This document shows, piece by piece, positions 5,596-54,803 of a DNA stretch of 64,000 nucleotides (position 1 is its first letter; every line of letters begins with the position of its first letter). Source of the stretch: an uncultured Candidatus Saccharibacteria bacterium. Lineage in GTDB: Bacteria > Patescibacteriota > Minisyncoccia > Phycocordibacterales > JACOZG01. The translations under genes were made by a program, and so were the position numbers. The stretch covers positions 380,243 to 444,242 of the forward strand of contig CAZYXJ010000001.1 in NCBI GenBank assembly GCA_964651115.1, given 5' to 3'. The notes below the pieces were generated by a model. It saw only the letters and a list, made by a program, of their open reading frames with translations, was not told the origin of the DNA and did no database searches.

Positions 5596-5636
5596 TTGGG
5601 CTTGCTATCCACGGGCGAGGGGAGTAGAATTGGATT

Positions 5637-16085: not shown

Positions 16086-16108
16086 AATTACCCGGCTCAG
16101 GCTGGTTT

Positions 16109-16639: not shown

Positions 16640-16662
16640 AAAACAAGTTATAATAAACTTGG

Positions 16663-17520
16663 GTGAAGAGAAAAATATTTATTTTCGCGCTTGTCGCGAT
16701 TCTTGTTGTAGGTGGAGGAGTGATTTTCTTGTGGGTACTAGGAAACAAAACTCTCCAAGACCAAGAGCTCGCGGCTCAAGGTTTTAAAAAAATTGATCAG
16801 CCAGACTCAGACGGGGATAGTCTGGCTGATTGGGAAGAAGAATTGTGGGAAACCGATCCACAAAAACCCGACACCGATGGCGACGGCGCCAGCGACGGAG
16901 AAGAAATTAAAGCCCGTCGCGACCCGCGACGGGCTGGACCAGGTGACGAGATACAGACCGCAAAAGATAATTTAAATATTTTAATTTATCAGGCGCTTAA
17001 ATCTAAGGATAATGGATTAATTATCCCCGAGACACCACTAGCATCCCCATCAGTAAAACAAGTAAAAGTTACAACAACAAACGAACGAACTGCCGAGGAA
17101 GCAATTCAATACGCGAGGAAGTTCGTGGCCGCCACTGCCCCCTACTTGCAATACTCCGGACCCAACCCCGAAAAATCGCTGCTAGAAAAAATCGACAACG
17201 AGAAATCCTCAGCCACAGAAAACCTGACCAATTACGGTTACATGCTCGAGGGGGTGACCCAATCACTTGAAGACATAAGCACCCCAGAAGAAGTTAGTTC
17301 TCATCACATTAAACTAATAACTCAAATAAAAAAAATGGCTGTTTTAGTTCAAAATATGCTTGAAGCCGAAAAACAACCAATTATCGCCCTGCAAGCTGGC
17401 CAACAATTTCCGATTGAGCGAGCATACGTTAGCCAAGCAATTTTAGATATAAACCAATATCTGATTAGATATGGCGTTTCGTTAACACCGGAAATGCTTA
17501 GTGGGATTCTTCGATTTTAA
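16663..17520 (+). CDS. membrane-anchored protein with thrombospondin-type-3-like Ca-binding Asp repeats
   Basis: N-terminal TM; DSDGDSLADWEEE and DTDGDGASDGEE (DxDxDG) motifs; first gene of the T4SS-like cluster. Confidence 0.45.
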   Translation: MKRKIFIFALVAILVVGGGVIFLWVLGNKTLQDQELAAQGFKKIDQPDSDGDSLADWEEELWETDPQKPDTDGDGASDGEEIKARRDPRRAGPGDEIQTAKDNLNILIYQALKSKDNGLIIPETPLASPSVKQVKVTTTNERTAEEAIQYARKFVAATAPYLQYSGPNPEKSLLEKIDNEKSSATENLTNYGYMLEGVTQSLEDISTPEEVSSHHIKLITQIKKMAVLVQNMLEAEKQPIIALQAGQQFPIERAYVSQAILDINQYLIRYGVSLTPEMLSGILRF

Positions 17521-17523
17521 AAC

Positions 17524-20500: not shown

Positions 20501-20880
20501 CCGCCAACCCCCTTGACTTCTCTCTACCCGCCATCGACTTTAACCAACTATTTCAAAATCAGTTGGCGGTGCAGCCGGCTTTGGCCGCCCCCGGCATCAG
20601 CATTCAACAAGCCACTACCGACAGCACCCCCGGCATTAAACAATCGAGAGTCTCGTGGAAGACCACCGGCGCCGTAACTTGTTTTGCCTCCACGGATTGG
20701 CTAAGCGGCACTTGGCCCGGCGACATTAGCACCACCACCGCTGGCAGTCTACTGGAGACGGTGGGGGAAATAACCCTCAACTACCCAGCCACCACCACAA
20801 CAGACCTGACTTACGGCTTAAACTGCTATAACTCCCAAGGCGTGAGCAGTCAGACGGAAGTTAAAGTAACCAATGAATAA
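17524..20880 (+). CDS. large (1118 aa) secreted/surface low-complexity protein of the T4SS-like cluster
   Basis: N-terminal TM; Q-, S- and G-rich regions (GGGATGGGGGG); internal tandem repeats (EFADRG x2, DPCPGT x2); no enzymatic motif recognised. Confidence 0.5.
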   Translation: MKLGSNIKKASSGMIFIWIISCLIFVPIMAAAQNKTSVDQRRQQDSQICQAEAENNRNFNSLPGGRKLADSLALGLAEGFNTVLKNTLETKVPAIMSRQISQKLPALINGNLQRQLAPAINNQIRTMRSRGLSDIQIKQELQSIIAQAIEAIVSETINAHAGTLTQQGIQTALPQELARQMGDQVPSILEASGFNRQTQEMVDQLVNPINQLLPLVIQLMTQVQNVGDVQQIIQQIFAQAVQKIITDAISSKNPEIGPLLGSEITISDADRKLIAEKISTGVASTTQQTLYKSRNLVNLSNEVSRRYASQLTPLLISQLTPQISQAFRNGPTGSSLNNSINNILTGPGFDLSRGMSGDFLMPIMNSIEKPLADVVQTQVASWTNSLQSLEQTNPALFESLTFEQSDLLGESATLDAEFADRGMGGSYGGVENGNQAAAEATVTDPEFADRGVGNVAAVSDEAAQAVKGNGSEITSNALSGMGSKISDAFKGSLANGLAGGLAGLVDNVPVVGGLLSGVVRQVTLQAMQQVLGVGVGAGVGGGATGGGGGGIQGEAKTGLKLGTTVGILPVSSHQFAGMSLLLDAIFNFLHLGLTASNVNTGGILGNTSTSNQNEKQQITIGQETQALVTQMCTLEKQLKGSLYNMEDVLTKHNPNANKSSLLKLVGMLKGGTTYFSQYYDDGSKGGVAAGDGTTTRSGQSGVAQLDKNIKQAGQDESNLVLTTAQTSQNPLTQEAIELYRSSRADENVFASWIAPEDCSKLNNPGSLSSQEASDLAVECSKPANNKFGLFTQVRQGALSAEARGQEDAQTKFVAYSGVNEKRYCSGGWTTDPLEADLSDLTLPGENGDILGQTPIGAPRQYCKEWTTLTPGSINYLYMFELIASIIRKIGSADSVGEDVANNYAVVPERIVQNLSTKPEEQLFDPNDDPCPGTDPCPGTGWNKKQVSEGSALEEAFSQGLDEGLANTVDNLSNVFDTISYDAINSPTSGTVFPANPLDFSLPAIDFNQLFQNQLAVQPALAAPGISIQQATTDSTPGIKQSRVSWKTTGAVTCFASTDWLSGTWPGDISTTTAGSLLETVGEITLNYPATTTTDLTYGLNCYNSQGVSSQTEVKVTNE

Positions 20881-23383: not shown

Positions 23384-23386
23384 TTT

Positions 23387-24166
23387 ATGACAACGCAACC
23401 CTTAACTGATCGCCTAAAAGAACTCCCAGCCGACTGGCAAGCTGACCTCCAGCGGCTCAATTTACCCGAGGTTGTCAAAAAGCTAGCTGCTGATTACAAG
23501 TTATCGCGTGAGCAAGAAGAACAACTAGAAGCCGAAACCGTTCTGGTGGCCATCGGTTTGGAGTTACGAACCGACCTAACCGCTAATCTAACCGCGGCTC
23601 TACACAGTGATTCGGCCGCGATCATCTCAATTAAAGATCGTTTAGAACGAGATGTTTTTAACCCCTTAGCCAAACACCTCGACCAAGCGGAAAAAGAAAT
23701 CAAGGCCGCGGAAGCGGAGGAGCGGGAAAAATACAAACACTTGCCCCTCGAACTCCAAAAAGTAATTCTCGACGCCCGAACCGAAGAGATCTTAGCCGCC
23801 CTTAGCGACAAGTACCAACTCCACATTGACCAAGCTGGTGCCCTGTACGACGTTACCGATCAGGTTTTAATGGGTAAAATTAAGTCCCGGGACTTTGTTG
23901 CCGAACTCGTTCGGACCTCCTCGATGAGTACCGATCTCGCTAGCAAAATAGCCGCGGATCTTAATCAGCAATTATTCCAGCCAGTCCAAAACACTCTCCG
24001 AACACTGGAAAGTCAGCCGCCAACCGTCTTCGAAGCCAAGTTAAAAGGGCTCTGGAGCGGCAATCAAAATCAAAGTTCGAACGAAATTTTGATCAAACCC
24101 CAACCCGCCACTACCGCCACCACACCCACCAAAGTTGCCGATCCCTACTTAGAACCCTTAGAATAA
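23387..24166 (+). CDS. hypothetical acidic soluble protein (T4SS-like cluster)
   Basis: No TM and no recognisable motifs; tightly packed between the VirB6-like and VirB3-like genes. Confidence 0.4.
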   Translation: MTTQPLTDRLKELPADWQADLQRLNLPEVVKKLAADYKLSREQEEQLEAETVLVAIGLELRTDLTANLTAALHSDSAAIISIKDRLERDVFNPLAKHLDQAEKEIKAAEAEEREKYKHLPLELQKVILDARTEEILAALSDKYQLHIDQAGALYDVTDQVLMGKIKSRDFVAELVRTSSMSTDLASKIAADLNQQLFQPVQNTLRTLESQPPTVFEAKLKGLWSGNQNQSSNEILIKPQPATTATTPTKVADPYLEPLE

Positions 24167-24170
24167 AGAC

Positions 24171-24572
24171 ATGAACTTCCAAGTACCCCAATTTATCGAG
24201 GTCGAAGACAAAATTTTCGGCCCCTTTACCTTTAAACAATTCGTCTACTTGGCTGGTTCGGCTGGTGCCGCTTTTCTGATTTGGGTTTATATCCCGGTTC
24301 GCTTTGTTGCCTTAATTTTCGTCATTCCGGTTTTGATCTTAGGGCTCTTGCTAACCTTTTACCGAGTTAATAATCGCCCATTTGTTTCTATTTTGGAGGC
24401 CGCGGCCCGCTACGCTCTAACTCACAAACTTTATATCTGGCAAAGATCTAGTGCTCCCACTAAAACTAACGTCACCGCTCCGACGACCTCGGGTTTAAAA
24501 ATTCCCAAACTCTCTGACAGCAAATTAAAAGACCTCTCCTGGAGTCTAGATGTGAAAGAAAAAATCCAGTAA
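24171..24572 (+). CDS. PrgI/VirB3-like small two-TM protein
   Basis: EDKIFGPFTFKQFVYLAGSAGAAFLIW + second TM; immediately upstream of VirB4 as in MPF_FA systems. Confidence 0.5.
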   Translation: MNFQVPQFIEVEDKIFGPFTFKQFVYLAGSAGAAFLIWVYIPVRFVALIFVIPVLILGLLLTFYRVNNRPFVSILEAAARYALTHKLYIWQRSSAPTKTNVTAPTTSGLKIPKLSDSKLKDLSWSLDVKEKIQ

Positions 24573-24592
24573 CAATGGTACACTAATAGGCA

Positions 24593-25240
24593 ATGGCCGC
24601 TGACACTAAAGCCAAAGCTTCGCAAGAATTTATTCCGATTCAAGAAATTCGGGATGGGGTAGTCATCCTTAAAGATGGGGGAATGCGTTTAGGTTTGATC
24701 GTCTCCTCGATTAACTTTGCGCTCAAATCGGCCGACGAACAAACCGCGATTCTGCTCCAGTTCCAAAACTTTCTTAACTCTCTGGATTTTGACATCCAGC
24801 TGTTTGTAGAATCCCGCAAACTAGACATCATGCCTTACCTCACCACCCTAGAGGAAAGATTGGTGGCTCAAACCAACGATTTGATGAAGGTCCAAACTCG
24901 AGAGTACATCGAATTTATCAAAAAATTTACTGAGACCACCGACATTATGTCGAAGAGTTTTTTCGTGATCGTCCCTTTCAATCCTTCAATCATCAGCAAT
25001 GCCAAATCACAAAGTTTAATTGGCCGATTCTGGCCCGGCGGCCAACCATCACCTAGTGCCGAGCAAGACCAGCTTAATAATTTTGAAGAAAATCGAACTC
25101 AATTAGAACAGCGAGCCGCCGTCGTCGCCGGCGGCCTGGGGGCCGCCGGCCTCCGGGTCTCCCAACTCGGCACCGAGGAATTAGTCGAGTTATACTTTAA
25201 GATGTTTAATCCGGGGGAACGCGAAATCCCTTCGATCTAA
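24593..25240 (+). CDS. VirB4/TrbE-family conjugation ATPase, N-terminal fragment (split gene)
   Basis: IPIQEIRDGVVILKDGGMRLGLIVSSINFALKSADEQTAILLQFQNFLNSL matches the VirB4 N-terminus of Gram-positive systems. Stops at 25238-25240, 4 nt before the next ORF in a different frame. Confidence 0.55.
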   Translation: MAADTKAKASQEFIPIQEIRDGVVILKDGGMRLGLIVSSINFALKSADEQTAILLQFQNFLNSLDFDIQLFVESRKLDIMPYLTTLEERLVAQTNDLMKVQTREYIEFIKKFTETTDIMSKSFFVIVPFNPSIISNAKSQSLIGRFWPGGQPSPSAEQDQLNNFEENRTQLEQRAAVVAGGLGAAGLRVSQLGTEELVELYFKMFNPGEREIPSI

Positions 25241-25244
25241 ATTT

Positions 25245-27080
25245 ATGTCTTTATTTAATTTCGGCAAAAAAACTGAGGCCGCCCCCACACTGACTCCGAT
25301 TCTGCCTCAAGACATTTATCAATTGGGAGTTTTGCAGCTACGCGACGTCATCGCGCCTTCAGCCCTCAAGGTCACGCCCAAGATGCTCCACCTGGGCGAT
25401 CGATTGGCCCGCACTTTTTACGTTATCTCTTACCCGCGATTCCTGTCTGGCGATTGGTTTGCCCCCATCATCAATCTCGACAAAATTTTTGACATTTCGA
25501 TTCATATCCATCCAATCGATAGCGCCTTGGCTCTGCGTCAACTAGAAAAAAAAGTGGCCGAAGTGCAAAGCCAAATCAGTATGAAGGAGGATCGGGGACT
25601 GGTGCGTGACCCGGTGCTCGACACCGCCTACCAAGACATCGAGGACTTACGCGACAGTCTCCAGCAAGCCCGCGAAAAAATCTTCGACGTCGGTATCTAC
25701 ATCACGATTTACGGTGACGGCGAAGAAGATCTCGACCGAGTCGAAACCGAGGTCAAAGGAATTCTCGACGCCAAACTAGTCTATTTAAAGCCCGCGCTCT
25801 TCCAACAAGCGGAAGGCTTTCGCAGCGTTTTACCCACCGCCACCGACGAATTAAACGTCAATTACAAACTCAACTCTTCACCGCTGTCGAGCGTCTTTCC
25901 CTTTGTCTCTTTTGATCTCACCTCCAACCGCGGCATTCTTTATGGCATCAACCGTCACAATTCCAGTCTCGTGCTCTTTGACCGCTTCTCACTCGAAAAC
26001 TACAACTCAGTGATCTTTGCCAAATCTGGTTCCGGTAAATCTTACGCCACCAAACTAGAAATCTTGCGTAGTTTAATGTTTGATACCGACGTTATCGTCA
26101 TTGACCCCGAGCGCGAATACGAATTCCTTGCCGAAGCCGTGGGGGGACGGTACTTTAACATCTCTCTATCTTCCGAACATCACATTAACCCCTTTGATCT
26201 CCCTTTCCCTCGCGAAGATGAGTCACCGGCCGACGTTCTCCGTTCCCACATCATCAATCTCGTCGGACTCTTTCGCCTAATGCTTGGCGGCCTCACCCCC
26301 GAGGAAGATGCCATTATCGACCGCGCCATTACCGAAACTTACGCCCTCAAAGACATCACGGCCGACATTGACTACACCACCAAGCCGGCGCCCCTGCTCT
26401 CCGACTTGGAATTAGTTCTGGCGGGCATGGAGGGCGGGGAGGGCTTGGCGCAACGCTTGCTCAAATACACCCGCGGCACCTGGTCGGGCTTTATCAACAA
26501 ACCGACCAACGTCGACATCAACAAAAAATTTATTGTTTTCTCCGTCCGCGACATGGAGGATGAGTTAAAGCCCGTGGCGATGTACATCGTGATGCACAAT
26601 ATCTGGAACTCCATCCGACGCAATCTTAAAAAGCGCCTGCTGGTAATCGATGAGGCCTGGTGGATGATGAAGTCCAAAGACACGGCCTCCTTCCTCTTCT
26701 CGCTCGTTAAGCGCGGACGCAAATACTATCTTGGCGTCGCGACAATTACCCAGGATGTCGGCGACTTCTTGCGCTCAGAGTACGGCACGCCAATTATTAC
26801 CAACTCTTCGATCCAACTCTTACTCAAGCAATCACCGGCCTCAATTGACCTCGTCCAGCAGACCTTCCAATTAACTGACGAAGAAAAATATTTACTCCTC
26901 GAATCAGCGGTCGGGGAGGGGATCTTTTTCGCCGGGCTAAAGCACGTGGCGATCAAAATCATTTCGTCTTACACCGAAAATCAAATTATCACTTCTGATC
27001 CGTCAGAGATTCTGGCCATCCGCCAAGCCAAAAAAGATCTAGCGGCCCTAAACAACAATGAAAGCGTCCCCGAAAATTAA
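25245..27080 (+). CDS. VirB4/TrbE-family conjugation ATPase, C-terminal portion (Walker A/B)
   Basis: Walker A IFAKSGSGKSYAT; Walker B LLVIDEAWWMM; VATITQDVGDF. Combined length with the upstream ORF is 826 aa, typical of intact VirB4. Confidence 0.75.
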   Translation: MSLFNFGKKTEAAPTLTPILPQDIYQLGVLQLRDVIAPSALKVTPKMLHLGDRLARTFYVISYPRFLSGDWFAPIINLDKIFDISIHIHPIDSALALRQLEKKVAEVQSQISMKEDRGLVRDPVLDTAYQDIEDLRDSLQQAREKIFDVGIYITIYGDGEEDLDRVETEVKGILDAKLVYLKPALFQQAEGFRSVLPTATDELNVNYKLNSSPLSSVFPFVSFDLTSNRGILYGINRHNSSLVLFDRFSLENYNSVIFAKSGSGKSYATKLEILRSLMFDTDVIVIDPEREYEFLAEAVGGRYFNISLSSEHHINPFDLPFPREDESPADVLRSHIINLVGLFRLMLGGLTPEEDAIIDRAITETYALKDITADIDYTTKPAPLLSDLELVLAGMEGGEGLAQRLLKYTRGTWSGFINKPTNVDINKKFIVFSVRDMEDELKPVAMYIVMHNIWNSIRRNLKKRLLVIDEAWWMMKSKDTASFLFSLVKRGRKYYLGVATITQDVGDFLRSEYGTPIITNSSIQLLLKQSPASIDLVQQTFQLTDEEKYLLLESAVGEGIFFAGLKHVAIKIISSYTENQIITSDPSEILAIRQAKKDLAALNNNESVPEN

Positions 27081-27378
27081 TGGTCTAAGCGCCATTGGTT
27101 TAACCGTCGTAGCCTTAGTCTTCGACATCTTAAGTCTCGTTCCTCTCTTAAACATCATTACTGGCTTAGTCGGCTGGTTCATCTTTTCTTTGTGGTTCTT
27201 CTTGCTTGGCTTTGGTTTACTGGAGGGGCGTCGGCTAGTCACTATTATGTCTTCAATGATTATCGAGGTTGTTCCTCTCTTAAGTTGGCTACCCACAATG
27301 ACCATCGGTGTTATCGCGCTCATTCTAATGGTAAACTTAAAGGGTGTCTTACCTCTCCCCAAAGTTAATTCTCGTTAG
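27058..27378 (+). CDS. small polytopic membrane protein (3 TM), T4SS-like cluster
   Basis: Three hydrophobic helices; overlaps the VirB4 stop. Confidence 0.4.
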   Translation: MKASPKINGLSAIGLTVVALVFDILSLVPLLNIITGLVGWFIFSLWFFLLGFGLLEGRRLVTIMSSMIIEVVPLLSWLPTMTIGVIALILMVNLKGVLPLPKVNSR

Positions 27379-28087
27379 TCTCGCATTACTTACCTCGAGC
27401 CTAACCGCTAATGCTCAAACCGCCCCCTTGGTTGATCTAATTTGGGAGGCCGATAGCTACTTACCGGCTTTTTACCCTGGACACAGCCGGCCAGCGCCTG
27501 GCAGCACCGTCCGCCTGGCCGCTTTAGCCCAGTTTACTGATCCGGCCACTGGCCGAAGTTTGGGTCCCGACAGTCTCACTTACACTTGGTCCAAAAATGG
27601 CCAAACCATGGGCGGCGTCTCGGGAGTGGGTAAAGATTCCATTATCTTTAGCGCTACCGAACAAGCTATTTTTCGAGTCACGGTGAGCCACTCGGCAAGC
27701 GGCCTAAGCGCGACTAATCAAGTCTCGATTAGTCCTCAACCCGGGCTCATTAAGCTTTATTACGAGGAACCACTCTTGGGCACGGCCCACCATCAACCGG
27801 TCCCGAGCACCTTTGAGATGCCCGAAGGTGAAATTAATTTAAGAGCCGAACCATTTTATTTTTCCCAGAACGCTTATCTCAACAAAAAAATCCAGTTCCA
27901 ATGGACCATCAACGGCGAAAATATTGTTTCTGACCCCGCCGATCCAGGTTTGATTACGATCACCAAGCCAGACACCGGGGTGGGGGAGAATGCTTTTACC
28001 GTCACGGCCAAAAATTTAGCTAACGTCTTGCAAACCGCGACTAATAAATTCACAATTAAGTTCAACAGCAGTAATATTTCTTTTTAA
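27344..28087 (+). CDS. secreted protein with signal peptide (T4SS-like cluster)
   Basis: Signal peptide LILVSLALLTSSLTANAQ; no recognisable domain. Confidence 0.45.
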   Translation: MSYLSPKLILVSLALLTSSLTANAQTAPLVDLIWEADSYLPAFYPGHSRPAPGSTVRLAALAQFTDPATGRSLGPDSLTYTWSKNGQTMGGVSGVGKDSIIFSATEQAIFRVTVSHSASGLSATNQVSISPQPGLIKLYYEEPLLGTAHHQPVPSTFEMPEGEINLRAEPFYFSQNAYLNKKIQFQWTINGENIVSDPADPGLITITKPDTGVGENAFTVTAKNLANVLQTATNKFTIKFNSSNISF

Positions 28088-28089
28088 CT

Positions 28090-28452
28090 ATGGATCCTCT
28101 TTACGCCGCTCAAAATACCAAACAAGTCGTGCTCATTCCTAATGCCGTTATCCCGGGCACCGAAAATCCTGAAGACTTCACTGATTTTATAGGCGGCCTC
28201 CTGCCGCAAATAATTACTGTTTTAGTCCTGCTCACGGTCATCTCCCTGGCGTGGTGGGGAATTGGCTACTTCTTAAAAAACATCCCGGGCTTCAAGTCCT
28301 ACGCCAAAACCAGAATTTGGGACATTATTTTAGGCCTAGTCCTAATTTTTGGGGCCTATCTCATTCTCCAAGTAATCAACCCCAACATCAATAACGGCAA
28401 CCTCTTTAACAACTCTTTAAATCAGATCAAGAATTCGAGTCCAGCCAAGTAA
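28090..28452 (+). CDS. small hydrophobic protein, possible VirB2/TrbC-like pilin
   Basis: 120 aa with two hydrophobic segments (ITVLVLLTVISLAWWGIGYF; IILGLVLIFGAYLILQVI), a pilin-like architecture; speculative. Confidence 0.35.
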   Translation: MDPLYAAQNTKQVVLIPNAVIPGTENPEDFTDFIGGLLPQIITVLVLLTVISLAWWGIGYFLKNIPGFKSYAKTRIWDIILGLVLIFGAYLILQVINPNINNGNLFNNSLNQIKNSSPAK

Positions 28453-28455
28453 ACC

Positions 28456-29679
28456 ATGCGGCGCCTTCTTATTATTATCATCTTAGTAGCCACCGGCTTA
28501 GCTGGCGGAGGTTGGTGGCTGTGGCAAAGGGCCCAAACTAACGGTGTTCTCTACGAGCCGCCAGCGGCCACCATTAACTTCCCCCAAGGAGAAGAGCGTC
28601 CAGGAATCAGCCGTTCAACCACCAGCGCCACCCTAATCCTGCCGGATCTTTCGAGTGGACCGCTTCAAACCGCCTCTAATCGACCCGTGGTGGGAGTAAT
28701 GAGCTTTGGTTCAGCGTCCTCCTCTCTAGAAATCTACGCCGAAGCAGTGAGCGGCCACCTTTATCTCGCCGGCGGCGGCCGCCTCTCCAACACCACGGTG
28801 GCTGGCCTCCGTCGGATCGTCGGGGCCAGCCAAGGCAAAAATATTAAGCTCCTCCTCACCACTCAAACGGGAGCCATGCCAGAAACCTTACTCGCCACTT
28901 TTATTCCACCCAAAGAAAATACTAATAGCTTCGTTGATAATCTCGAATCGGAAACCACCCTCCAAACTCAAGCGCTCTCTCGACTAATTAGAGAGCCCGT
29001 CATTAGCCCGACGGGCGAGGCCTGGGCCTATCTCACCCCCAAAGGCCCCAAGACTGAAGTCGTGATTAATCAATTTAGCAGCAGCAGTCCAATTTCGCTT
29101 TATTCCTCGCCGCTCGAAGAATGGTCTCTCGCTTGGCCCGCAACCTCAACCATCACCCTACAAACAAAGCCGGCCAGCTTTATTGCGGGCACCTTAATCG
29201 GTCTAAATCCGAAAACTAAAGTAGCCACGCGGCTAATCGGGGGAGTCTCCGGCCTCTCCGCCCAGATGAGCCCCGATGGCCAAGCCATCGTCTACAGCGG
29301 CGCTGCTACCAACGGAATTTTTCTGGGACTTTACTACCCAGCCACCGACCTATTAACTCGCGCGCCTTTTGTAACGCTAGCCGATAAGTGTACCTGGTCT
29401 AAAAATAGCCAAACTCTTTATTGCGCAGTGCCCAAAACCATCCCCCCAGGGAATTATCCCGAAGATTGGTATCAAAGTAACGTTAGTTTTAGCGATATTT
29501 TCTGGAAATTTAATCGTCAGACCAACCGCGCCGAAATTATTTACAATCCCGAATTGGCTAATCCTAGCCGGTCACTCGACGCGACCAATCTAGTCGTCAG
29601 CATTGACGAAAGCAAACTCTACTTTAAAAATAAAGCTGACCAACTTCTTTGGAGTCTTAATCTCAAGACAGGATTTTAG
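28456..29679 (+). CDS. N-terminally anchored secreted protein, putative beta-propeller (TolB-like repeats)
   Basis: N-terminal TM; repeated SP(D/T)G...Y motifs (SPTGEAWAYL, SPDGQAIVYS). Confidence 0.4.
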   Translation: MRRLLIIIILVATGLAGGGWWLWQRAQTNGVLYEPPAATINFPQGEERPGISRSTTSATLILPDLSSGPLQTASNRPVVGVMSFGSASSSLEIYAEAVSGHLYLAGGGRLSNTTVAGLRRIVGASQGKNIKLLLTTQTGAMPETLLATFIPPKENTNSFVDNLESETTLQTQALSRLIREPVISPTGEAWAYLTPKGPKTEVVINQFSSSSPISLYSSPLEEWSLAWPATSTITLQTKPASFIAGTLIGLNPKTKVATRLIGGVSGLSAQMSPDGQAIVYSGAATNGIFLGLYYPATDLLTRAPFVTLADKCTWSKNSQTLYCAVPKTIPPGNYPEDWYQSNVSFSDIFWKFNRQTNRAEIIYNPELANPSRSLDATNLVVSIDESKLYFKNKADQLLWSLNLKTGF

Positions 29680-37470: not shown

Positions 37471-37968
37471 TTAAGAAATATATGTGGACAAAGCGGCTAG
37501 GCCGATGGCGATCGCGTCGTATTCATCATCGTGTCTTTGGATTGTTGATAGCTTAACTAGGCGTTTAACCATGTTCTGAACTTGAGCTTTGTCGGCTTTG
37601 CCGTAACCGGTGACGGCCAGTTTGATGCTTTGAGGATTTAGTTCGCAGATGCTGGCTTGAGCTTTGGCGGCAAGATAGAGGATGACGCCGCGGGTCTCGG
37701 CCACGGCGCTGGCCGTTTTACGATTAGTTGAGAAGAAAAGTGTTTCTAGGGCGACGAGATTTGGTTGCCACTCCTTGATCAGATCTTCTAGTTGCCGACC
37801 AATTTCCGCCAGCCGATTAGGAAAGGAATTGGTTTTTTGGGACGTGAGACAGGTCGAGAATTTTACCACCTCGCGTCCTTGCTCGCGTTTAATCACGGCT
37901 ACGCCTAAACGGTCGTAGCCGGGGTCGAGAGCCAGAACAGTCAGTTCGTCTTTAGAGGCCGGGGACAT
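37471..37968 (-). CDS. ruvC: crossover junction endodeoxyribonuclease RuvC
   Basis: VLALDPGYDRLGVAVI, catalytic acidic residues, 165 aa. Confidence 0.85.
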   Translation of the reverse strand: MSPASKDELTVLALDPGYDRLGVAVIKREQGREVVKFSTCLTSQKTNSFPNRLAEIGRQLEDLIKEWQPNLVALETLFFSTNRKTASAVAETRGVILYLAAKAQASICELNPQSIKLAVTGYGKADKAQVQNMVKRLVKLSTIQRHDDEYDAIAIGLAALSTYIS

Positions 37969-38488
37969 TGGTGGTTACATTTTTAACATCCTCATTTTCC
38001 TCAAGCTCATCAAGCAAGTTGGCTAATTGTTGGGTCTCGGCTTCGCCAATCTCCAGCGGCGTTTTGGCGCTCCAACCGGTGAGCGTTTTGGTAAAAGCCC
38101 AAGTGACTGAGCCGGGAGTGGCTAAGCTTGAGCCATAAAGGGAGAGGAGGTGTTTTAGTTCTTGAGAGGTCCGATTTTTATTATCGGTGATCCCTTCGAT
38201 GATCAACGCCGCCCCACCTGGGCCGTAAGCTTCGTACATGACTTCTGCCAGATCGGCGGCACCGGCTCCCGTCGCGGCGGCGATCGCTCGTTCGATGTTG
38301 TCGTTTGGCATATTAACGGCTCGGGCGCGTTCGATGGCGGCGCGAACGCCGGGGTGATTCCGATCGCCGCCGGCCCGCTTGATTTCTACGTTAATTGCTT
38401 TAGCGTGCATGCCAAAAACTTTGCTGCGTTTTTGGTCTTCGACCCCCTTTTTTCTCTTGATTTGTGACCATTTACTATGACCAGACAT
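37952..38488 (-). CDS. yebC: YebC/PmpR family protein (short variant)
   Basis: N-terminus MSGHSKWSQIKRKKGVEDQKRSKVFGMHAKAI is canonical YebC/DUF28; only 178 aa. Confidence 0.75.
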   Translation of the reverse strand: MSGHSKWSQIKRKKGVEDQKRSKVFGMHAKAINVEIKRAGGDRNHPGVRAAIERARAVNMPNDNIERAIAAATGAGAADLAEVMYEAYGPGGAALIIEGITDNKNRTSQELKHLLSLYGSSLATPGSVTWAFTKTLTGWSAKTPLEIGEAETQQLANLLDELEENEDVKNVTTNVPGL

Positions 38489-38609
38489 AGCGGCATTTTA
38501 GCATATTTGGTGAGGCCTAACCCTTGACAAGATTTTAATTAAATGCTAGTTTCCGCAGTGAAGAACTCGGGTGAGTTCGAGATCTTTTAAAGAAGGAAGG
38601 AGGCGCGTA

Positions 38610-39233
38610 ATGCGCCAGGCGATGTGGAAGATGATCGTGGCGGCGGTGGCGGTGATGGCGGCGTCGGTGTCGGCGAATTCGATCGTGGGGGTGAGCTACC
38701 CTCGCGATCAGTTCGAAGTGGGGGTCTCCCACGGCTACGGCCATGAGGAGCTGGCCGTAGCGTCGGTCAATCTGTCGACTAACTCCCGGCAGATCGAGGA
38801 GGCCCGAGTCCAGGCCCGGCCCATTTTCTGGGACGACCAGCCCGGACTCATGATCGTGATGACCTTCTACGGCCGTCACGATCAAGACCCGACAAAGGCC
38901 AAGAAGTGGTTAAGCTCGGTCCAGGCATTTCCTGGGGTCGAGCTCGGCTCCTCGATTGGAGGATGGGATGATCAGGGGAAGGTCGTCGATCAGGCGTTCG
39001 CCTGGGCGGAGATCGAAGGCCTGAGTTGGTCTAACACCTGGATCAATTATGAGACCTTCCCTTACGGGAAGGGGAGCCTCAACCAGCCGCGGGGTTTCCA
39101 GTGGACCTTCGGGTTCACTGGTTACTTTGATGATCCGGTTAAGGGGCGAGCGACGCTCGCGGCCTTGCCGGAGCCATCTGCACTCGTCCTTCTGGGCATC
39201 GGCGCCCTTCCGTTTTTGCTGCGCCGGCGCTAG
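38610..39233 (+). CDS. secreted protein with C-terminal PEP-CTERM sorting signal
   Basis: GGAGG Shine-Dalgarno; signal peptide MIVAAVAVMAASVSA; C-terminus LPEPSALVLLGIGALPFLLRRR-stop (PEP + TM + Arg cluster). GC-rich. Confidence 0.6.
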   Translation: MRQAMWKMIVAAVAVMAASVSANSIVGVSYPRDQFEVGVSHGYGHEELAVASVNLSTNSRQIEEARVQARPIFWDDQPGLMIVMTFYGRHDQDPTKAKKWLSSVQAFPGVELGSSIGGWDDQGKVVDQAFAWAEIEGLSWSNTWINYETFPYGKGSLNQPRGFQWTFGFTGYFDDPVKGRATLAALPEPSALVLLGIGALPFLLRRR

Positions 39234-39267
39234 GATTGAGTGAGTTGAGTCGTGCGCTGGCGACTCC

Positions 39268-39360
39268 CCCGGGCGAGCACCTTACGGTGCCGCTCGGGGT
39301 TTTTCTTTTTTAAAAATCAGACTTATACACAACCGGACAGAGCCGTATATGCTAGAGTAG
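39268..39360 (+). repeat. terminator + degenerate promoter module copy 5
   Basis: CCCCGGGCGAGC...GCCGCTCGGGG hairpin, then TTTTTCTTTTTTAAAAATCAGAC, related to the 11-15 kb modules; followed by palindrome GAGTTCGgtgtTCGAACTC. Confidence 0.5.
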
Positions 39361-39369
39361 TAAAAGAAG

Positions 39370-39388
39370 AGTTCGGTGTTCGAACTCG
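39370..39388 (+). promoter_or_regulatory. perfect 7-bp inverted repeat (GAGTTCG-gtgt-CGAACTC) between promoter and Shine-Dalgarno, operator-like
   Basis: Exact palindrome located in the 5' leader of the second PEP-CTERM gene. Confidence 0.3.
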
Positions 39389-39420
39389 CTCAGTCCTTTT
39401 TTAGTAAGAGAGGAGGATTT

Positions 39421-40023
39421 ATGCGCGGAATTTTGGTTGGTTGGTGTTTGCTCGGCCTCGTTGATTTTGTTTCGGCGACCACTATTAGGATGGCGTCTGG
39501 CTATGCTCCGGATCGGGCCTGGGCCTCGCTTACTGGTACTATCGCGGTGGAGACGGCGAATCATAGCTTTGTCTTTTGGGAGACGCCAGCCGGCGCAAGG
39601 TGGAATCTGACCCTCTCTGGCGTGGGGCGGATGGACGCTGGCGGGCTCGCTGGTCCGCCGCTGATGGGACAGTATCAAATTCCGGGACACGACTTTCTAT
39701 TAACGTGGGAAATGCTAGTTCCTGGCAGTTGGTATGCCACCGCCAGTCTCCAGGGCGGCGTCGTGGAGAGCGCGACTCCGGTTTTGGAGGCGCTGGGAGA
39801 GGATCGCTGGCGAGCGGGTTTATTTATTACTGGCTTAGCCGCGCCGGAGCCCGGGGCGCTGGTAGTTTTTTTGATTAGCGCCGCGCTAGTAAACACCCGC
39901 CGGAGGGGGCGGGTGTTTTTGTTGGGGCTAAAGCAACTTAGCTTGATCTGTCTCGGGGTAATCGTAACCCAAGTGGAGGTAGGCCTTTTTGGTGACAACG
40001 CGACCGCGCGGTGTTCGCTCTAA
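39421..40023 (+). CDS. secreted protein with PEP-CTERM-like signal and an odd ~40-aa extension
   Basis: GAGGAGG Shine-Dalgarno; signal peptide LVGWCLLGLVDFVSA; APEPGALVVFLISAALVNTRRRGRV, but the frame stays open about 40 more codons and overlaps the ruvB 3' end. The true stop may be earlier, or the C-terminus is decayed. Confidence 0.45.
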   Translation: MRGILVGWCLLGLVDFVSATTIRMASGYAPDRAWASLTGTIAVETANHSFVFWETPAGARWNLTLSGVGRMDAGGLAGPPLMGQYQIPGHDFLLTWEMLVPGSWYATASLQGGVVESATPVLEALGEDRWRAGLFITGLAAPEPGALVVFLISAALVNTRRRGRVFLLGLKQLSLICLGVIVTQVEVGLFGDNATARCSL

Positions 40024-40938
40024 GAAACCGAGCTGGATGAGGTAGGGCTCATGAACTTCTTCAATCGCGGCGTCTTCTTCGGAGGTAGCGGTAGCGATTG
40101 TTGAAACGCCCACGGGGCCGCCGTTAAATTTTTCAATAATGGTTTCTAAGATTTTTCGATCGGTCGTGGTTAAACCGTATTCATCGATGCCCATTAGGTT
40201 AAGAGTATCTTGAACTACTTTTTTGTTTATCGTTTGTTTGTTGAGCTGGGCGAAGTCGCGACAGCGTTTTAAAAATTGATTAGCGATCCGGGGAGTAGAG
40301 CGACTCCGTTCGGCGATGATTTGAGCCGCTTCAGATTCCAGAGTGATATCTAAGATGGCCGCCGAGCGCGAGACAATCGTGGCAATTTCTTGGGGGGTAT
40401 AAAATTCGAGACGGAAAGTTCCGCCGGAGAAGCGCGAGCGCAGGGGGGAAGAGAGGAGGGCAATGCGCGTAGTGGCCGCCACGAGCGTAAAGGGCGGCAG
40501 GTCCAGTTGAATAGAGCGTGCTCCCGGTCCTTTGCCAATAATGATGTTGAGATTACCCGACTCCATCGCGGGGTAGAGGACTTCTTCGATCAGCTTGTTG
40601 AGGCGGTGGATCTCGTCAATAAAGAGAATGTCGCCGGCCGATAGATTGGTGAGGATTGAGGCTAGGTCACCGACCTTTTCGATGGCTGGTCCTGACGTAA
40701 CCTTCATTTGAGCGCCCATTTCCTTGGCGATTAGGTGGGCGAGAGTGGTTTTGCCGAGCCCCGGTGGGCCATAAAACAGGAGGTGTTCTGGCGGGTGCTT
40801 GCGCTCGGCGGCCGCTTTCAGTAGAATCTTCAGGTTGTCTTTTATTGATGATTGACCCACATAATCATCCCACGAGTCTGGTCGCAGGGCGCTATCGTTA
40901 AAACGTTCTGATTTGTCGGAGGGGGTTATGCTTGACAT
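39928..40938 (-). CDS. ruvB: Holliday junction branch-migration helicase RuvB
   Basis: Walker A LLFYGPPGLGKTTLA; Walker B ILFIDEIHRL; RuvB C-terminal winged helix. Confidence 0.9.
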   Translation of the reverse strand: MSSITPSDKSERFNDSALRPDSWDDYVGQSSIKDNLKILLKAAAERKHPPEHLLFYGPPGLGKTTLAHLIAKEMGAQMKVTSGPAIEKVGDLASILTNLSAGDILFIDEIHRLNKLIEEVLYPAMESGNLNIIIGKGPGARSIQLDLPPFTLVAATTRIALLSSPLRSRFSGGTFRLEFYTPQEIATIVSRSAAILDITLESEAAQIIAERSRSTPRIANQFLKRCRDFAQLNKQTINKKVVQDTLNLMGIDEYGLTTTDRKILETIIEKFNGGPVGVSTIATATSEEDAAIEEVHEPYLIQLGFLERTPRGRVVTKKAYLHLGYDYPETDQAKLL

Positions 40939-41188
40939 ACTAAAATTGGTATGCTATATTGGCGCTGTTCAATCACAAGTCTTGGTATTTTCGAATCGAG
41001 GCCATAAACCTCTAAGCAATAAGCTTCCACGCTTAAACGGGTTTTTACAAAAGGACGGGTTGGTGTTCGTTTTTAACGAAAGGGCTGGCCCCATCCTTGC
41101 GTAATTACCTCACTTTTTGTATTCAGTACAGAAAGGATTGCTTAGAGGTTTATGCTCTCGATTTTTTTGTTCAAGTGCTGTCGACAGT

Positions 41189-45727: not shown

Positions 45728-46240
45728 ATGCGGTTGGGCTTTTTTTCCAAACCAGAAGTTTTGTTGCCAGTGCCTTTTTTCAAGCAAGATCGTAGTTTTA
45801 CCTGTGGACCTACCGCCGTCCAAATGGCCTGCGCTTTTTGGGGCGCTCGGTTAAGCGAGTCTAAGCTGGTTAAACTGGCCCATTCTAGCCCTTTCGGTAC
45901 TTCTCATGGTGGTTTATTGCAAAGCGTTCTCGATGCCGGTCTCTATTGCTATCTTAATGCCGACACTTCGATCGAAGAAATTAAGTATTTGTTGCGAAGC
46001 GGTTGGCCAGTGATTGTTAATTACACCGAGCCATCAACCAACGACGGCCACTATGCTGTGGCGGTTGGTTTTTCTGAGCGATCAATTATTCTTAACGATC
46101 CATGGAATGGCCCAAATTTTAAATTACCTTGGCCGGAATTTGAGCGGCGTTGGTATGATCATGGGCTTCACCGATCGAGTCACTGGCTTTTGGCGGTGGC
46201 TGATCAGCCGTTTACCCTCGGACGAACTTACGCGCCATGA
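45728..46240 (+). CDS. peptidase C39-like (papain-fold Cys/His) domain protein
   Basis: Catalytic-looking Cys (FTCGPTAVQMA) and His (DGHYAVAVG) at spacing typical of the C39_2/transglutaminase-like fold. Confidence 0.5.
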   Translation: MRLGFFSKPEVLLPVPFFKQDRSFTCGPTAVQMACAFWGARLSESKLVKLAHSSPFGTSHGGLLQSVLDAGLYCYLNADTSIEEIKYLLRSGWPVIVNYTEPSTNDGHYAVAVGFSERSIILNDPWNGPNFKLPWPEFERRWYDHGLHRSSHWLLAVADQPFTLGRTYAP

Positions 46241-51442: not shown

Positions 51443-52615
51443 TTAGGAAATTTTGGCTAACTCTTCTGTGGTAATGCCCTTATCGCTCCACGGTTCTTTG
51501 GTGCCAGCGGCCCGCATAATGTAGGGATCAGTGCCTTTGCCCGTGATCAAAACGACGTCTCCCGGCTGAGCGGTTTTTAAGGCTTGGCGAATTGCTTCTC
51601 GGCGGTCCATGATAATTTTATATTTCCCCGAGTCTTTAACCCCGGCGGCGACTTCTTTAACGATTTTTTCTGGGTCTTCGTCGTAAGGATCTTCGTCGGT
51701 AAAGAAGATTTGGTCGCAGTAGCGTCCGGCGATCTCGCCCATCACTGGCCGCTTCCAGCTATCGCGGCCGCCACCGGTGCCTCCTAAGACACAGATTTTG
51801 CGTTGGTGGGGGAATGATTTATAAACCGCTTCGAGTGAGTCAGGAGTGTGGGCGTAGTCGACGATGATCTCAAAAGGCGCGCCGGCTACTTTTTCCATTC
51901 GGCCAGCTACGCCTTTAAATTTTTTGATAGCGCGGGTGATTGTGTCACGAGAAATTCCCAGGGCCTCGGCCAGCGTGCCAGCCGCTAGAATATTATATTT
52001 GTTAAAGTCGCCGATTAAAGAACTCTGGTTAACATAATCCGGGGCCTCGGCCAGACGGAAGGACCGGGTATCGGCGACGCCGAGGGCGGCAAAATGGGCC
52101 GATTCGGGGTCGTCGCCGTTGATGATTAGGAGTGGTCGGGCGGTGCGCGAGCGGAGTAGCTGGCGGGCTAACTCGATCTTGGCAGCACGGTAATTCTCGT
52201 AAGAGCCGTGACTCTCAATGTGCTCCGGGGCGAGATTGGTAAAGACGAAGGCGTTGAGGTTGATCCCGCGATGGCGGTATTGCGGGGCCCCCTGGCTCGT
52301 CATCTCAATGACGGCGTGGGTGCAGCCGGCTTGGAGGGCTCGGTGGAAAAATTTTTGCAGCCAGCCTCGGCCGGGCATCGACATCTTTTTTAAATTTGGC
52401 TCAGAGTGATTGTCGATTTTAGTCCTTACGGTGGAGGCGAGAGCGGTGCGGTAGCCGGCTTCTTCTAAAATGGCGTTGATCAGCTCGGCGGTCGTACTCT
52501 TGCCTTTGGTTCCGGTAATGCCGATGACGAAAAGTTTTCGGGAGGGGAAGCGGTAAATCGCGGCGCTACCGACGGCCCAGAGCCAGTGATAAATTTGATG
52601 GAACAATTTAATCAT
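51443..52615 (-). CDS. Mur ligase family protein (MurE/MurT-like)
   Basis: ATP-binding P-loop IGITGTKGKSTT and Mur-ligase middle and C-terminal domains; 390 aa lacks the MurE N-domain. Confidence 0.55.
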   Translation of the reverse strand: MIKLFHQIYHWLWAVGSAAIYRFPSRKLFVIGITGTKGKSTTAELINAILEEAGYRTALASTVRTKIDNHSEPNLKKMSMPGRGWLQKFFHRALQAGCTHAVIEMTSQGAPQYRHRGINLNAFVFTNLAPEHIESHGSYENYRAAKIELARQLLRSRTARPLLIINGDDPESAHFAALGVADTRSFRLAEAPDYVNQSSLIGDFNKYNILAAGTLAEALGISRDTITRAIKKFKGVAGRMEKVAGAPFEIIVDYAHTPDSLEAVYKSFPHQRKICVLGGTGGGRDSWKRPVMGEIAGRYCDQIFFTDEDPYDEDPEKIVKEVAAGVKDSGKYKIIMDRREAIRQALKTAQPGDVVLITGKGTDPYIMRAAGTKEPWSDKGITTEELAKIS

Positions 52616-53196
52616 GATTTAGAGCTTAGGAATTTAAGAGCCGCCTTTACTTTGTCGCCAGTGTCGGAGAGTTCGGCCGGCAGTTGGCGCAAGGCGTCCC
52701 GGGCTTCTCTTAAGCCGTAGCCCAGGGCCTGTAAGGCCTCGATTACTTCGGCTTCGCCAGTGAGGGTGGCGCTTGATTCGGCGCTGGCTAAGGCGCCTAA
52801 CTTATCGCGCAATTCGAGAATAATTTTTTCCGCGCTTTTCTTGCCGATGCCGGAGACGCGGGTGAGATAAGAAGAGTCGCCCGCGGCGATTGCTCGTTCG
52901 AGGGTGGTAGGCGGCGCCAAAGAGAGGATCCCGAGGGCGCTTTTAGGGCCAATGCCCGAGATCGAGATCAACAGTTCAAAAAAATTTAATTCGGCCTGTT
53001 CTAAAAACCCGTAGAGGTCTAAGGCGTCTTCGCGAACAATCTGATGGATCCAGAGCCGGAGCGGTTCAGGCGTGATGGCTCCCAGTTGGCGTTGGGCCTC
53101 GGCCGAAACGTATACCTTGTAGCCCACGCCGCCGACCTCTAAAATCAAGTAACGTTCGCCTCGGTAAGCGACCTTGCCAGTCAATTGACCAATCAT
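52612..53196 (-). CDS. ruvA: Holliday junction DNA helicase RuvA
   Basis: MIGQLTGKV...GVGYKVYVS OB domain, HhH pair (ISGIGPKSA), C-terminal domain III. Confidence 0.85.
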   Translation of the reverse strand: MIGQLTGKVAYRGERYLILEVGGVGYKVYVSAEAQRQLGAITPEPLRLWIHQIVREDALDLYGFLEQAELNFFELLISISGIGPKSALGILSLAPPTTLERAIAAGDSSYLTRVSGIGKKSAEKIILELRDKLGALASAESSATLTGEAEVIEALQALGYGLREARDALRQLPAELSDTGDKVKAALKFLSSKS

Positions 53197-54179: not shown

Positions 54180-54264
54180 GGAGGAGTGGCAGAGTGGTCT
54201 ATCGCACCTGTCTTGAAAACAGGAGTCTCGCAAGGGACCGTGAGTTCGAATCTCACCTCCTCCG
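54180..54264 (+). tRNA. tRNA-Ser (anticodon TGA), long variable arm
   Basis: Acceptor GGAGGAG/CTCCTCC, anticodon stem CCTGT/ACAGG with loop CTTGAAA, long variable arm GAGTCTCGCAAGGGACC, T-arm GTGAGTTCGAATCTCAC. Confidence 0.8.
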
Positions 54265-54383
54265 CACTGGGTACTGAACCCACAATGCCCGCTATTTACT
54301 TTTTGTCAAACTCTGTGCTAGTTATATATCCGGCGCGGATTAATGCGATTTGCGCACAGTTCTTCGTAATAGGAGACGTTTAC

Positions 54384-54803
54384 ATGGGCAAGTTAATGCA
54401 GTGGATGCAAGGCGAGCTCGAGGGGATCGGGGCCGCGGATGTTAAGGCGCCCGAGTTTTCGGTGGCCGTCGGCGAGGAGGTGCTCGGTACTCTGACCGAT
54501 CTCTACCTGCAGAAGCTCTGGGTGCTCGGCGAACGGTTGAGTAACGAGTTGGCGACTCTTGCCAAGGAGCCCGCTCACAAGCGGAATACGATCACTCTGA
54601 GCGAGAAGAAAGACGTCGTGTACACGCTCTTCTGGACCGGCCTTCGGCACGAGCTTTCCGAGGACGCTCTCGTGAGGTTCGACAAGGAGTGTTCCATGAT
54701 CGGTATTCGCAAGGGCTGGGAGATCGTGGCCTGTCGCAAGCCCCAGTTTTCGCTGCCCGCCGTCCTCCTGGCGTTCGGGCCCCGCATTCCGATTCCGGGC
54801 TAA
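54384..54803 (+). CDS. hypothetical GC-rich protein (139 aa)
   Basis: ATG with AGGAG Shine-Dalgarno; the track ORF 54186..54803 is trimmed because its 5' part is tRNA-Ser. Followed by terminator AGGCGACCAAA-ttttt-GGTCGCCTTTTT. Confidence 0.45.
   Translation: MGKLMQWMQGELEGIGAADVKAPEFSVAVGEEVLGTLTDLYLQKLWVLGERLSNELATLAKEPAHKRNTITLSEKKDVVYTLFWTGLRHELSEDALVRFDKECSMIGIRKGWEIVACRKPQFSLPAVLLAFGPRIPIPG

Follow-up and report, generated by a model that had tools for sequence, protein, structure and literature searches.

This analysis is concerned with two adjacent genes, here called ORF1 and ORF2 (open reading frames 1 and 2), which are located between the yebC-ruvC block and ruvB in a 64-kb stretch of DNA ("the window") from an uncultured Candidatus Saccharibacteria bacterium, and whose predicted products end in what resembles the PEP-CTERM protein-sorting signal. 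Saccharibacteria, which belong to the Candidate Phyla Radiation (CPR), have generally been described as monoderm, i.e. without an outer membrane. The genes at the locus are the following:

37471-37968, minus strand: ruvC, divergent from ORF1
37952-38488, minus strand: yebC, divergent from ORF1 and forming with ruvC the block 37471-38488
38610-39233, plus strand: ORF1, coding for a protein of 207 amino acids (aa) with a PEP-CTERM-type C-terminus
39421-39909, plus strand: putative functional core of ORF2, after which there is no stop codon
39928-40938, minus strand: ruvB, convergent with ORF2, with a terminator common to both (Pfam synteny lists)

The two plus-strand ORFs are located where a preliminary description of this DNA had placed them, on the strand opposite to that of the genes on either side, and ruvA, which it had put about 12 kb away, is found at 52612-53196 on the minus strand, ~11.7 kb past ruvB. 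The longest mechanically called frames start at GTG codons (38571 for ORF1, 39376 for ORF2); the likely starts are ATG 38610, with the Shine-Dalgarno (SD) sequence GGAGG at 38599-38603, and ATG 39421, with GGAGG at 39412-39416, and both of these starts are kept in relatives. Read from ATG 39421 to the first stop codon (40021-40023), ORF2 comprises 200 aa. The wider gene order is dnaA-dnaN-PBP1-aaRS (aminoacyl-tRNA synthetase)-ruvC-yebC, the ORF1-family gene and ruvB-pilB, and the site of the ORF1-family gene adjoins oriC.

Both ORFs contain the N-terminal signal-peptide-like region and the C-terminal succession of PEP, hydrophobic stretch and RRR that had been reported for them. As read from the sequence, the signal peptide of ORF1 spans residues 1-22 (MRQAMWKMIVAAVAVMAASVSA/NS, i.e. 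VSA/N) and that of ORF2 residues 1-19 (MRGILVGWCLLGLVDFVSA/TT, i.e. VSA/T), and a hydropathy scan finds no internal transmembrane segment in either protein. The PEP-CTERM segment of ORF1 (residues 186-207, nucleotides (nt) 39165-39230) reads LPEPSALVLLGIGALPFLLRRR and is followed by the stop codon; all three parts of the C-terminus are present in it, namely the PEP motif, a hydrophobic helix of ~14 residues and the basic cluster. The corresponding segment of ORF2 (residues 141-162, nt 39841-39906) reads APEPGALVVFLISAALVNTRRR and is followed by G163; ORF2 carries APEPGALVVFLISAALVNTRRRG and then 37 further residues before the annotated end, and its tag is C-terminal only if translation stops at a terminator that is located inside the reading frame. 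Between signal peptide and tag, ORF1 has an ectodomain of ~160 aa that is all-beta with nine strands in the AlphaFold2 (AF2) model (predicted local distance difference test, pLDDT, 62.8), and ORF2 has a domain of ~120 aa. The alignment of ORF1 with ORF2 is limited to the tails; homology between the two has been considered and rejected, since the tails alone align and ORF2 gave no match to the ORF1-family protein of another lineage (locus L005).

The C-termini have been compared with two hidden Markov models (HMMs) of the PEP-CTERM signal, TIGR02595 (curated cut-off 16 bits) and PF07589 (gathering score 20.7). ORF2 scores 18.0 bits against TIGR02595, above the cut-off, and its relatives P0005 and L001 score 20.7 and 16.3 bits; six members of the ORF1 family are also located above the cut-off (25.3, 25.1, 22.9, 21.2, 18.8 and 16.6 bits), and other orthologues of ORF1 are found under it (15.9, 15.9 and 12.4 bits, and one without a match). 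Several further PEP-CTERM family models, among them floc_PepA, match ORF1 in their tails, and NF033554 (Zoogloea floc PepA) is the best or second-best NCBIfam match for most members of the ORF1 family; its scores of 15-27 bits, against a cut-off of 80, are mostly tail signal, and in one protein (P0008) the match reaches the body (residues 109-218, E 4.5e-6), so that homology of the ectodomains is unproven. In an alignment of 11 ORF1-family sequences, P-E-P and RRR are invariant (11/11), at 0-7 residues from the C-terminus; the block GYFxDPxxGxxFLAxVPEP is conserved, and the motif around PEP is [LVTA]PEP[SATG]. The tail of the ORF1-family profile retrieves canonical proteins with multiple PF07589 tags from 1.8 billion sequences. 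The HMM scores, the invariant P-E-P and RRR and the retrieval of PF07589 proteins support the assignment of both C-termini as PEP-CTERM-type sorting signals, which had been proposed for them; an invariant PEP in a sequence that otherwise diverges freely is expected for a motif that is recognised by an enzyme, and not for a plain membrane anchor.

Apart from the sequences of the window itself, a word-indexed search of 5.8 billion proteins has revealed only three relatives, two for ORF1 and a single one for ORF2, all of them in the gene order of the window; one is located on a contig of the uncultured Candidatus Saccharibacteria metagenome-assembled genome GCA_964444555.1, whose housekeeping proteins are 86-96% identical to those of the window. 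With the ORF1 profile, exhaustive HMMER searching has added seven more remote relatives of 197-236 aa, each with a signal peptide, a domain of ~170 aa and an end of the form ...VPEPxxxxLLxxG...RRRR, and the proteins of the ORF1 family measure ~200-235 aa. Further proteins that were retrieved (P0007 and P0010-P0016) are unrelated to the family, being either MBG-repeat proteins or chimeras with several tags, whose match is confined to the tail. We found no homologue of ORF1 or ORF2 from any other identified group, the remaining family members being located on short contigs.

We have inspected the loci L001, L002, L005/L017/L018 (protein P0020), L014-16 (P0018), L022-24 (P0022) and L025 (P0017), and every member with an inspected contig, in five lineages, is located at the same site, between yebC-ruvC and ruvB. 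Between these lineages the identity is 74-84% for RuvB, 58-75% for YebC and 23-34% for the ORF1-family PEP protein. Since the synteny extends over five lineages, the gene is older than their split, and ORF1, to judge from this comparison, represents in the window an old family that is inherited vertically and evolves fast. ORF2 has a homologue in a second deep lineage (L022/L024; 30% protein and 45% nucleotide identity), while L005, L014 and L025 are single-gene lineages in which the gene has a normal stop, with a different terminator after it; by the same comparison, ORF2 is a second, unrelated gene with a predicted PEP-CTERM tag that occurs in some lineages.

Both genes are under purifying selection: the ratio of non-synonymous to synonymous divergence (omega) is 0.19-0.29 for ORF1 and 0.15-0.23 for the core of ORF2, next to 0.08 for yebC and 0.03 for ruvB, and the synonymous divergence (dS) that separates the window from its closest relatives is already ~0.8-1.0. 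ORF1 has the highest GC content, and the highest GC content at third codon positions (GC3), of the 69 ORFs of the window (GC 0.61, z=2.1; GC3 0.76, z=2.7), and ORF2 is mildly elevated (GC 0.57, z=1.3; GC3 z=0.6); the preliminary description had both genes clearly richer in GC than their surroundings, which holds for ORF1 and not for ORF2. In the three lineages that were checked (window 38610-39233, L005 5067-5750, L014 10001-10711), the GC3 of the ORF1 family is 0.73-0.78, with a background GC of 0.46-0.52, and it persists despite saturated synonymous divergence. This persistence across lineages indicates that the high GC3 is maintained and is not the scar of a transfer, and selection on the mRNA and biased gene conversion are both possible causes. 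The earlier notion of an insertion that interrupts the yebC-ruvC-ruvB arrangement is contradicted by the homologous gene at the same site in five lineages and by this maintained composition. The ribosomal-protein genes of the window are not unusually rich in GC (0.46 and 0.55); a similarly high GC3 is found in two ORFs (13309-13803, 13803-14279) that match no family.

The end of ORF2 comprises two further elements:

39891-39924, both strands: intrinsic terminator located inside ORF2 and 3' of ruvB, with an 11-bp stem, the loop GGAGGG and then UUUUUGUUG on the plus strand
39910-40023, plus strand: read-through tail of ORF2, antisense to ruvB from 39928

The stem of the terminator is perfect and GC-rich (39891-39901 pairs with 39908-39918), and the hairpin begins 10 nt past the stop codon of ruvB; the fold reaches -29.7 kcal/mol on the plus strand (z=-4.0) and -22.7 kcal/mol on the minus strand (z=-3.2), where UUU alone follows. 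In the frame of ORF2 it encodes N-T-R-R-R-G-R-V-F-L-L, and, the codons of NTRRRG being the 5' arm of the hairpin, the basic anchor of the tag is written in the terminator stem. The terminator is 100% identical in the window, L001 and L002, though the flanking codons differ, and that of L022 has one loop G fewer and is otherwise the same, in a gene whose body has 45% nucleotide identity; the L022/L024 homologue ends in ALPEPWRASLFILATLLNTRRRGG, again without a stop, and runs on in a different frame to 252 aa. The arginine codons that are shared between the lineages, the identity of the 3' arm in spite of its being read in different frames, and a gene body whose nucleotide identity has fallen to a near-random level indicate that it is the nucleic-acid structure that is held.

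None of the four genomes of these two lineages (0/4) has a stop codon upstream of the terminator. The read-through past RRR into ruvB that had been noticed before is confirmed as to the missing stop and the overlap, which amounts to 96 nt, codon for codon and antisense; the recent decay that had been suggested for it does not agree with its conservation in two deep lineages. We have likewise considered ORF2 as a decaying pseudogene and rejected this on its omega and its conservation across lineages. From these comparisons, the missing stop appears as an old and stable property of the gene, not as decay.

The residues that follow the terminator (e.g. QLSLICLGVIVTQVEVGLFGDNATAR, VFLLGLK) number 37 in the window and L002, 64 in L001 and 89 in L022. 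Among the window, L001 and L002, 14-15 of 20 substitutions in the tail are located at ORF2 codon position 1; of the 16 changed codons, 12 are synonymous for ruvB and 14 non-synonymous for ORF2, and the corresponding count between L001 and L002 is 6/6. To judge from this pattern, the tail is without constraint in the ORF2 frame and evolves as the passive antisense of ruvB. An open antisense run of at least 32 codons occurs by chance in 26% of genes in the frame of the window, and the 58-codon run in the frame of L022 is allowed by 3.5% of the window's genes; selection that holds the tail open has been considered and is not needed, as the open runs of the window lineage are within chance. Our conclusion from these sequence comparisons is that the functional product of ORF2 would end at about NTRRRG and that the annotated extension would be an artefact of reading through into antisense ruvB. 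ORF2 is thus probably translated from a non-stop mRNA, and partial read-through of the terminator may leave a junk tail on some molecules; gene models of 200-252 aa with an overlap into ruvB probably have incorrect 3' ends.

The reading opposed to this, namely that ORF2 is translated as annotated, with the terminator read through and the 37-aa extension functional, possibly as a second helix, agrees with the gene callers, which predict proteins of 200, 227 and 252 aa, with the hydrophobic character of the tail in the window lineage, where AF2 draws a low-confidence helix, with the capacity of a translating ribosome to suppress a terminator inside an ORF, and with the open run of L022, which is somewhat long. 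We consider it unlikely, since the substitutions of the tail are silent in ruvB and replace residues of ORF2, the position of the stop differs between L001 and the window, L022 has an unrelated basic tail in another frame, and chance suffices for an open run of the tail's length in the window frame.

The noncoding signals of the two genes outrank the coding regions in conservation between the window, L001 and L002, and are the following:

38524-38552, plus strand: predicted ORF1 promoter, TTGACA, 14 nt and an extended -10 element TGcTAGTTT (pattern scan)
38563-38578, plus strand: ORF1 5' stem-loop GAACTC-GGGT-GAGTTC, a few nt past the inferred transcription start
39267-39311, plus strand: ORF1 intrinsic terminator, with the hairpin at 39267-39299 and then UUUUUCUUUUUU
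39350-39358, plus strand: predicted ORF2 promoter, extended -10 element TGcTAGAGT without a good -35 element, kept in L001 and L002
39369-39387, plus strand: ORF2 5' stem-loop GAGTTCG-GTGTT-CGAACTC
39392-39419, plus strand: second hairpin in the 5' untranslated region (5'-UTR) of ORF2, in which the CCUUUUUU stretch pairs with the SD sequence GGAGG at 39412-39416

The ORF1 promoter is nearly invariant in the window, L001 and L002, and the same architecture is found upstream of the L005, L014 and L022 orthologues; no match of this type is located upstream of the L025 orthologue. The region of the ORF1 terminator (39234-39320) folds with -39.6 kcal/mol (z=-4.9), and its stem differs between the window and L001/L002 with the hairpin retained. 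ORF1 and ORF2 are thus separate transcription units.

The ORF1 5' stem-loop is kept in L001 and L002. That of ORF2 is a perfect 7-bp inverted repeat, of which ~0.07 are expected by chance, and it corresponds to the palindromic operator of the preliminary description, which had located it one base off, at 39370-39388. In L001 and L002 it reads GAGTCCG...CGGATTC, with one compensatory change and one G-U pair; such changes keep an RNA helix and break a DNA palindrome, and hence point to an RNA structure rather than a DNA element, so that the repeat stands and the operator gives way to a hairpin. The repeated promoter module of which it was thought to be part has no counterpart in the window: when both upstream regions and the terminator are compared with it by blastn-short, no significant repeat emerges, only self matches and generic T-rich tails, and each inverted-repeat word pattern occurs once. 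The 5'-UTR of ORF2 (39355-39423) folds with -20.8 kcal/mol (z=-3.3); the hairpin that pairs with the SD sequence, which may exert translational control of ORF2, is kept in L001 and L002, and a weaker equivalent precedes ORF1. In the other lineages, hairpins of 7-13 bp with unrelated stems follow the promoter, mostly within a few nt, though at a greater distance downstream in L014 and L025. We infer from this recurrence that the elements are hairpins of the 5'-UTR, with a mRNA-stabilising or regulatory role. A search of 38480-40030 against Rfam (E<=1) returned two weak chance matches only, both on the terminator.

To judge by these signals, ORF1 and ORF2 are probably strongly expressed. Because strong transcription and translation signals occur together with fast evolution and a fixed genome position, we infer that their products are abundant, exposed surface proteins, possibly with a role in adhesion or host contact. 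Saccharibacteria are obligate epibionts whose surface proteins mediate attachment to host bacteria; to our knowledge, few of these proteins have been characterised.

The account that we hold to be moderately probable is that the locus contains two autonomous genes for small, Sec-exported, PEP-CTERM-tagged surface proteins, whose sorting enzyme is encoded elsewhere, with ORF2 translated from a non-stop mRNA. Following Sec export and cleavage of the signal peptide, the C-terminal helix would hold each protein in the membrane with the arginine cluster in the cytoplasm, and a dedicated membrane enzyme, encoded elsewhere and most likely a protein of the exosortase/archaeosortase family, would recognise the invariant P-E-P and either release the beta-rich ectodomain or re-anchor it on the cell surface. 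In the case of ORF2, the majority of transcripts would end at the internal terminator, and translation of the resulting non-stop mRNA would run as far as its 3' end. The product would end just past NTRRRG, the ribosome being rescued through the ssrA tag or by an alternative rescue factor (no gene for the ssrA RNA, i.e. tmRNA, is located in the window). Any ssrA tag would be situated on the cytoplasmic side of the sorting helix, and the annotated extension of 37-89 aa would be meaningless read-through.

Several observations weigh against this account. Against TIGR02595, ORF1 scores 14.8 bits, so that of the two proteins ORF2 passes the model and ORF1 narrowly fails it; the L022 homologue of ORF2 has no TIGR02595 match, and both proteins are located under the gathering score of PF07589 (15.7 and 10.3 bits), a model family of which Pfam recognises only ~22% of true instances (PMC1569441). 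The fold of ORF1 has no match in the PDB (Foldseek) and its sequence none, and the AF2 model of ORF2 (pLDDT 34) is not usable. A ribosome close behind can suppress an intrinsic terminator in translated sequence, so that much read-through may occur. With respect to the enzyme, no exosortase was found in the window, where all ORFs with at least three hydrophobic segments were scanned or otherwise identified, in agreement with what had been noted earlier, and PF09721 is absent from the Pfam lists of the ~20-kb syntenic loci of five lineages. PEP-CTERM was originally found only in diderm bacteria with exopolysaccharide (EPS) genes, at a median of 8 copies per genome and co-occurring with EpsH (PMC1569441); a Saccharibacteria host with only one or two tags found in the window and in each of the related loci departs from that profile of diderm envelope, EPS and many copies, and the tag is as unexpected in this monoderm-like lineage as it had been called. 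We saw no EPS genes near the locus, and no relevant publication was retrieved when the literature was searched for a connection of PEP-CTERM or exosortase with Saccharibacteria, Patescibacteria, CPR or TM7.

As to the source of the enzyme, we lean towards a divergent exosortase that is encoded elsewhere in the genome, because the enzyme family of the archaeal PGF-CTERM/ArtA system works without an outer membrane. PGF-CTERM/archaeosortase A is an exosortase-family system of a single-membrane envelope, in which it serves abundant surface proteins. The sole unassigned polytopic protein of the window (20873-23383, 836 aa) is located in a type IV secretion-like cluster and has no NCBIfam or Pfam match. 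That cluster (~14770-29679, plus strand), which resembles secretion and conjugation systems, also comprises a TraG/VirB4-like ATPase (25245-27080), a protein of 1118 aa that is likewise without a family match, and a product (28090-28452) that weakly matches a pilin-like conjugal transfer protein; it fits the type IV secretion system described for Patescibacteria (PMC12102498). A more specific reading, which we regard as somewhat unlikely, is that this Saccharibacteria clade keeps the PEP-CTERM pathway for one or two abundant proteins, served by a divergent exosortase or by a new enzyme, and that ORF2 is non-stop by design, because the terminator encodes the arginine anchor of its tag, with ribosome rescue and ssrA tagging of the cytoplasmic tail competing with PEP cleavage to gate the surface level of the protein.

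Were the two products instead ordinary, C-terminally anchored surface proteins of the tail-anchored type I kind, with coincidental PEP tripeptides and HMM matches and no sorting enzyme, the score of ORF1 under the cut-off, the scores of both proteins under the Pfam gathering threshold and the lack of an exosortase in the window and the related loci would follow, and short tripartite tails are known to give noisy HMM matches, with LPXTG tails among the top noise of PEP-CTERM (PMC1569441). Such an anchor does not need a conserved PEP, however, and P-E-P is invariant in the 11 family members and present in the unrelated ORF2 proteins, while the bodies are 23-34% identical and six members of the family exceed the curated cut-off, the highest score being 25.3 bits; we therefore assign this alternative a small probability.

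The tags could also be variant sortase signals, with [LVA]PEP[SAG] in the place of LPXTG, by which a sortase would attach the proteins to the peptidoglycan of a monoderm-type envelope. The tripartite architecture is the same as that of LPXTG proteins and the two kinds of signal cross-match (PMC1569441), and a class A penicillin-binding protein is encoded in the window, which indicates that peptidoglycan is made. Against this, the LPXTG model TIGR01167 has no match at E<=10 to the tested proteins, which match the PEP-CTERM models, and no sortase was seen in the window. We also know of no sortase that takes proline at the position of the cleaved threonine, and we hold the sortase alternative to be quite improbable.

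That the pair is a recent, horizontal, GC-rich insertion from a Gram-negative donor, non-functional without an exosortase, is hardly credible: the rank of ORF1 in GC and GC3 and the typical occurrence of PEP-CTERM in diderm bacteria (PMC1569441) suggest it, but it is largely refuted by the synteny at one site in five lineages with RuvB at 74-84% identity, and it also disagrees with a dS of ~1 between close relatives, with purifying selection on both genes, with the GC3 that is maintained in three lineages against their background, and with the lack of any homologue found in another identified group; an ancient transfer of the PEP-CTERM tag is possible.

Additional elements that are not involved in the two genes have been found in the window and at the related loci. 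In the gap between ruvB and pilB (40932-41172, plus strand) is located a conserved structured RNA candidate of ~165-200 nt, which has a near-consensus promoter of its own, TTGACAT-N17-TATGCTATATT (40932-40960), and a closing helix with U7 after it. The candidate occurs in all five Saccharibacteria lineages (L001 12358-12564, L022 12432-12605, L017 11798-11971, L014 11814-12030, L025 11768-11977), RNAalifold gives 56 pairs, compensatory changes being present in 16, and there is no match in Rfam 15 at E<=1; it may represent an undescribed RNA family. At 45728-46240 (plus strand), a stand-alone C39-family cysteine peptidase domain of 170 aa, without an attached ABC transporter, is encoded and is kept in L001. 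In L025, and in this lineage only, an ORF of 572 aa with Hint/intein-like and Big_13 domains (4036-5754) directly follows dnaN. A 205-aa ORF at 54186-54803 (plus strand), which starts within tRNA-Ser (54180-54265) and has no family match, is probably spurious.

If the account that we prefer is correct, exosortase-type sorting extends past diderm bacteria and archaea into the CPR; if these genomes turn out to lack an exosortase, PEP-CTERM can no longer be taken as a sign of one, and a new sorting enzyme is still to be discovered. The stop-less ORF2 would be a natural case of a terminator and a protein-sorting signal on the same nucleotides, and, with its secreted product, would join the very few genes for which expression by way of a non-stop mRNA is known.

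Among the known systems, PEP-CTERM/exosortase (EpsH, XrtA; TIGR02595, PF07589; Haft 2006, PMC1569441) has the same signal peptide, Pro-Glu-Pro motif, hydrophobic stretch of ~14-15 residues and terminal arginine cluster, as well as fast-evolving ectodomains whose homology is confined to the tail, and its models match at or near their cut-offs. Unlike that system, the present genes have a CPR host that is not a diderm EPS producer, are seen in one or two copies at a single housekeeping locus without exosortase or EPS genes nearby, and in ORF2 carry a tag that is not located at the annotated C-terminus. Zoogloea PepA (NF033554) is likewise a small (200-260 aa) secreted PEP-CTERM protein, whose 80-bit cut-off is far above the scores of the ORF1 family. 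PGF-CTERM/archaeosortase A differs in its PGF motif and its archaeal hosts, and no archaeosortase homologue was found in this analysis.

For the stop-less end, the closest likeness is brfA of Bacillus subtilis, in which, as experiments have shown, an intrinsic terminator within the ORF yields a non-stop mRNA whose product is under the control of ssrA tagging, with arfA of Escherichia coli being similar (PMC6881298); in genes of this kind the non-stop mRNA is due to a terminator or a cleavage site within the reading frame. Like these genes, ORF2 has a rho-independent terminator in frame and upstream of any stop, and the residues past the terminator, dispensable or unconserved there, are unconstrained in ORF2. 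Whereas brfA and arfA encode cytoplasmic ribosome-rescue factors, ORF2 is a predicted secreted protein; it is without a stop near the terminator in any genome, its first in-frame stop varies in position and frame, and the basic anchor of its sorting signal is encoded by the terminator stem. What is new here is a protein family and a host range for a known sorting signal, together with the unusual and conserved arrangement in which a terminator overlaps a coding end that has no stop.

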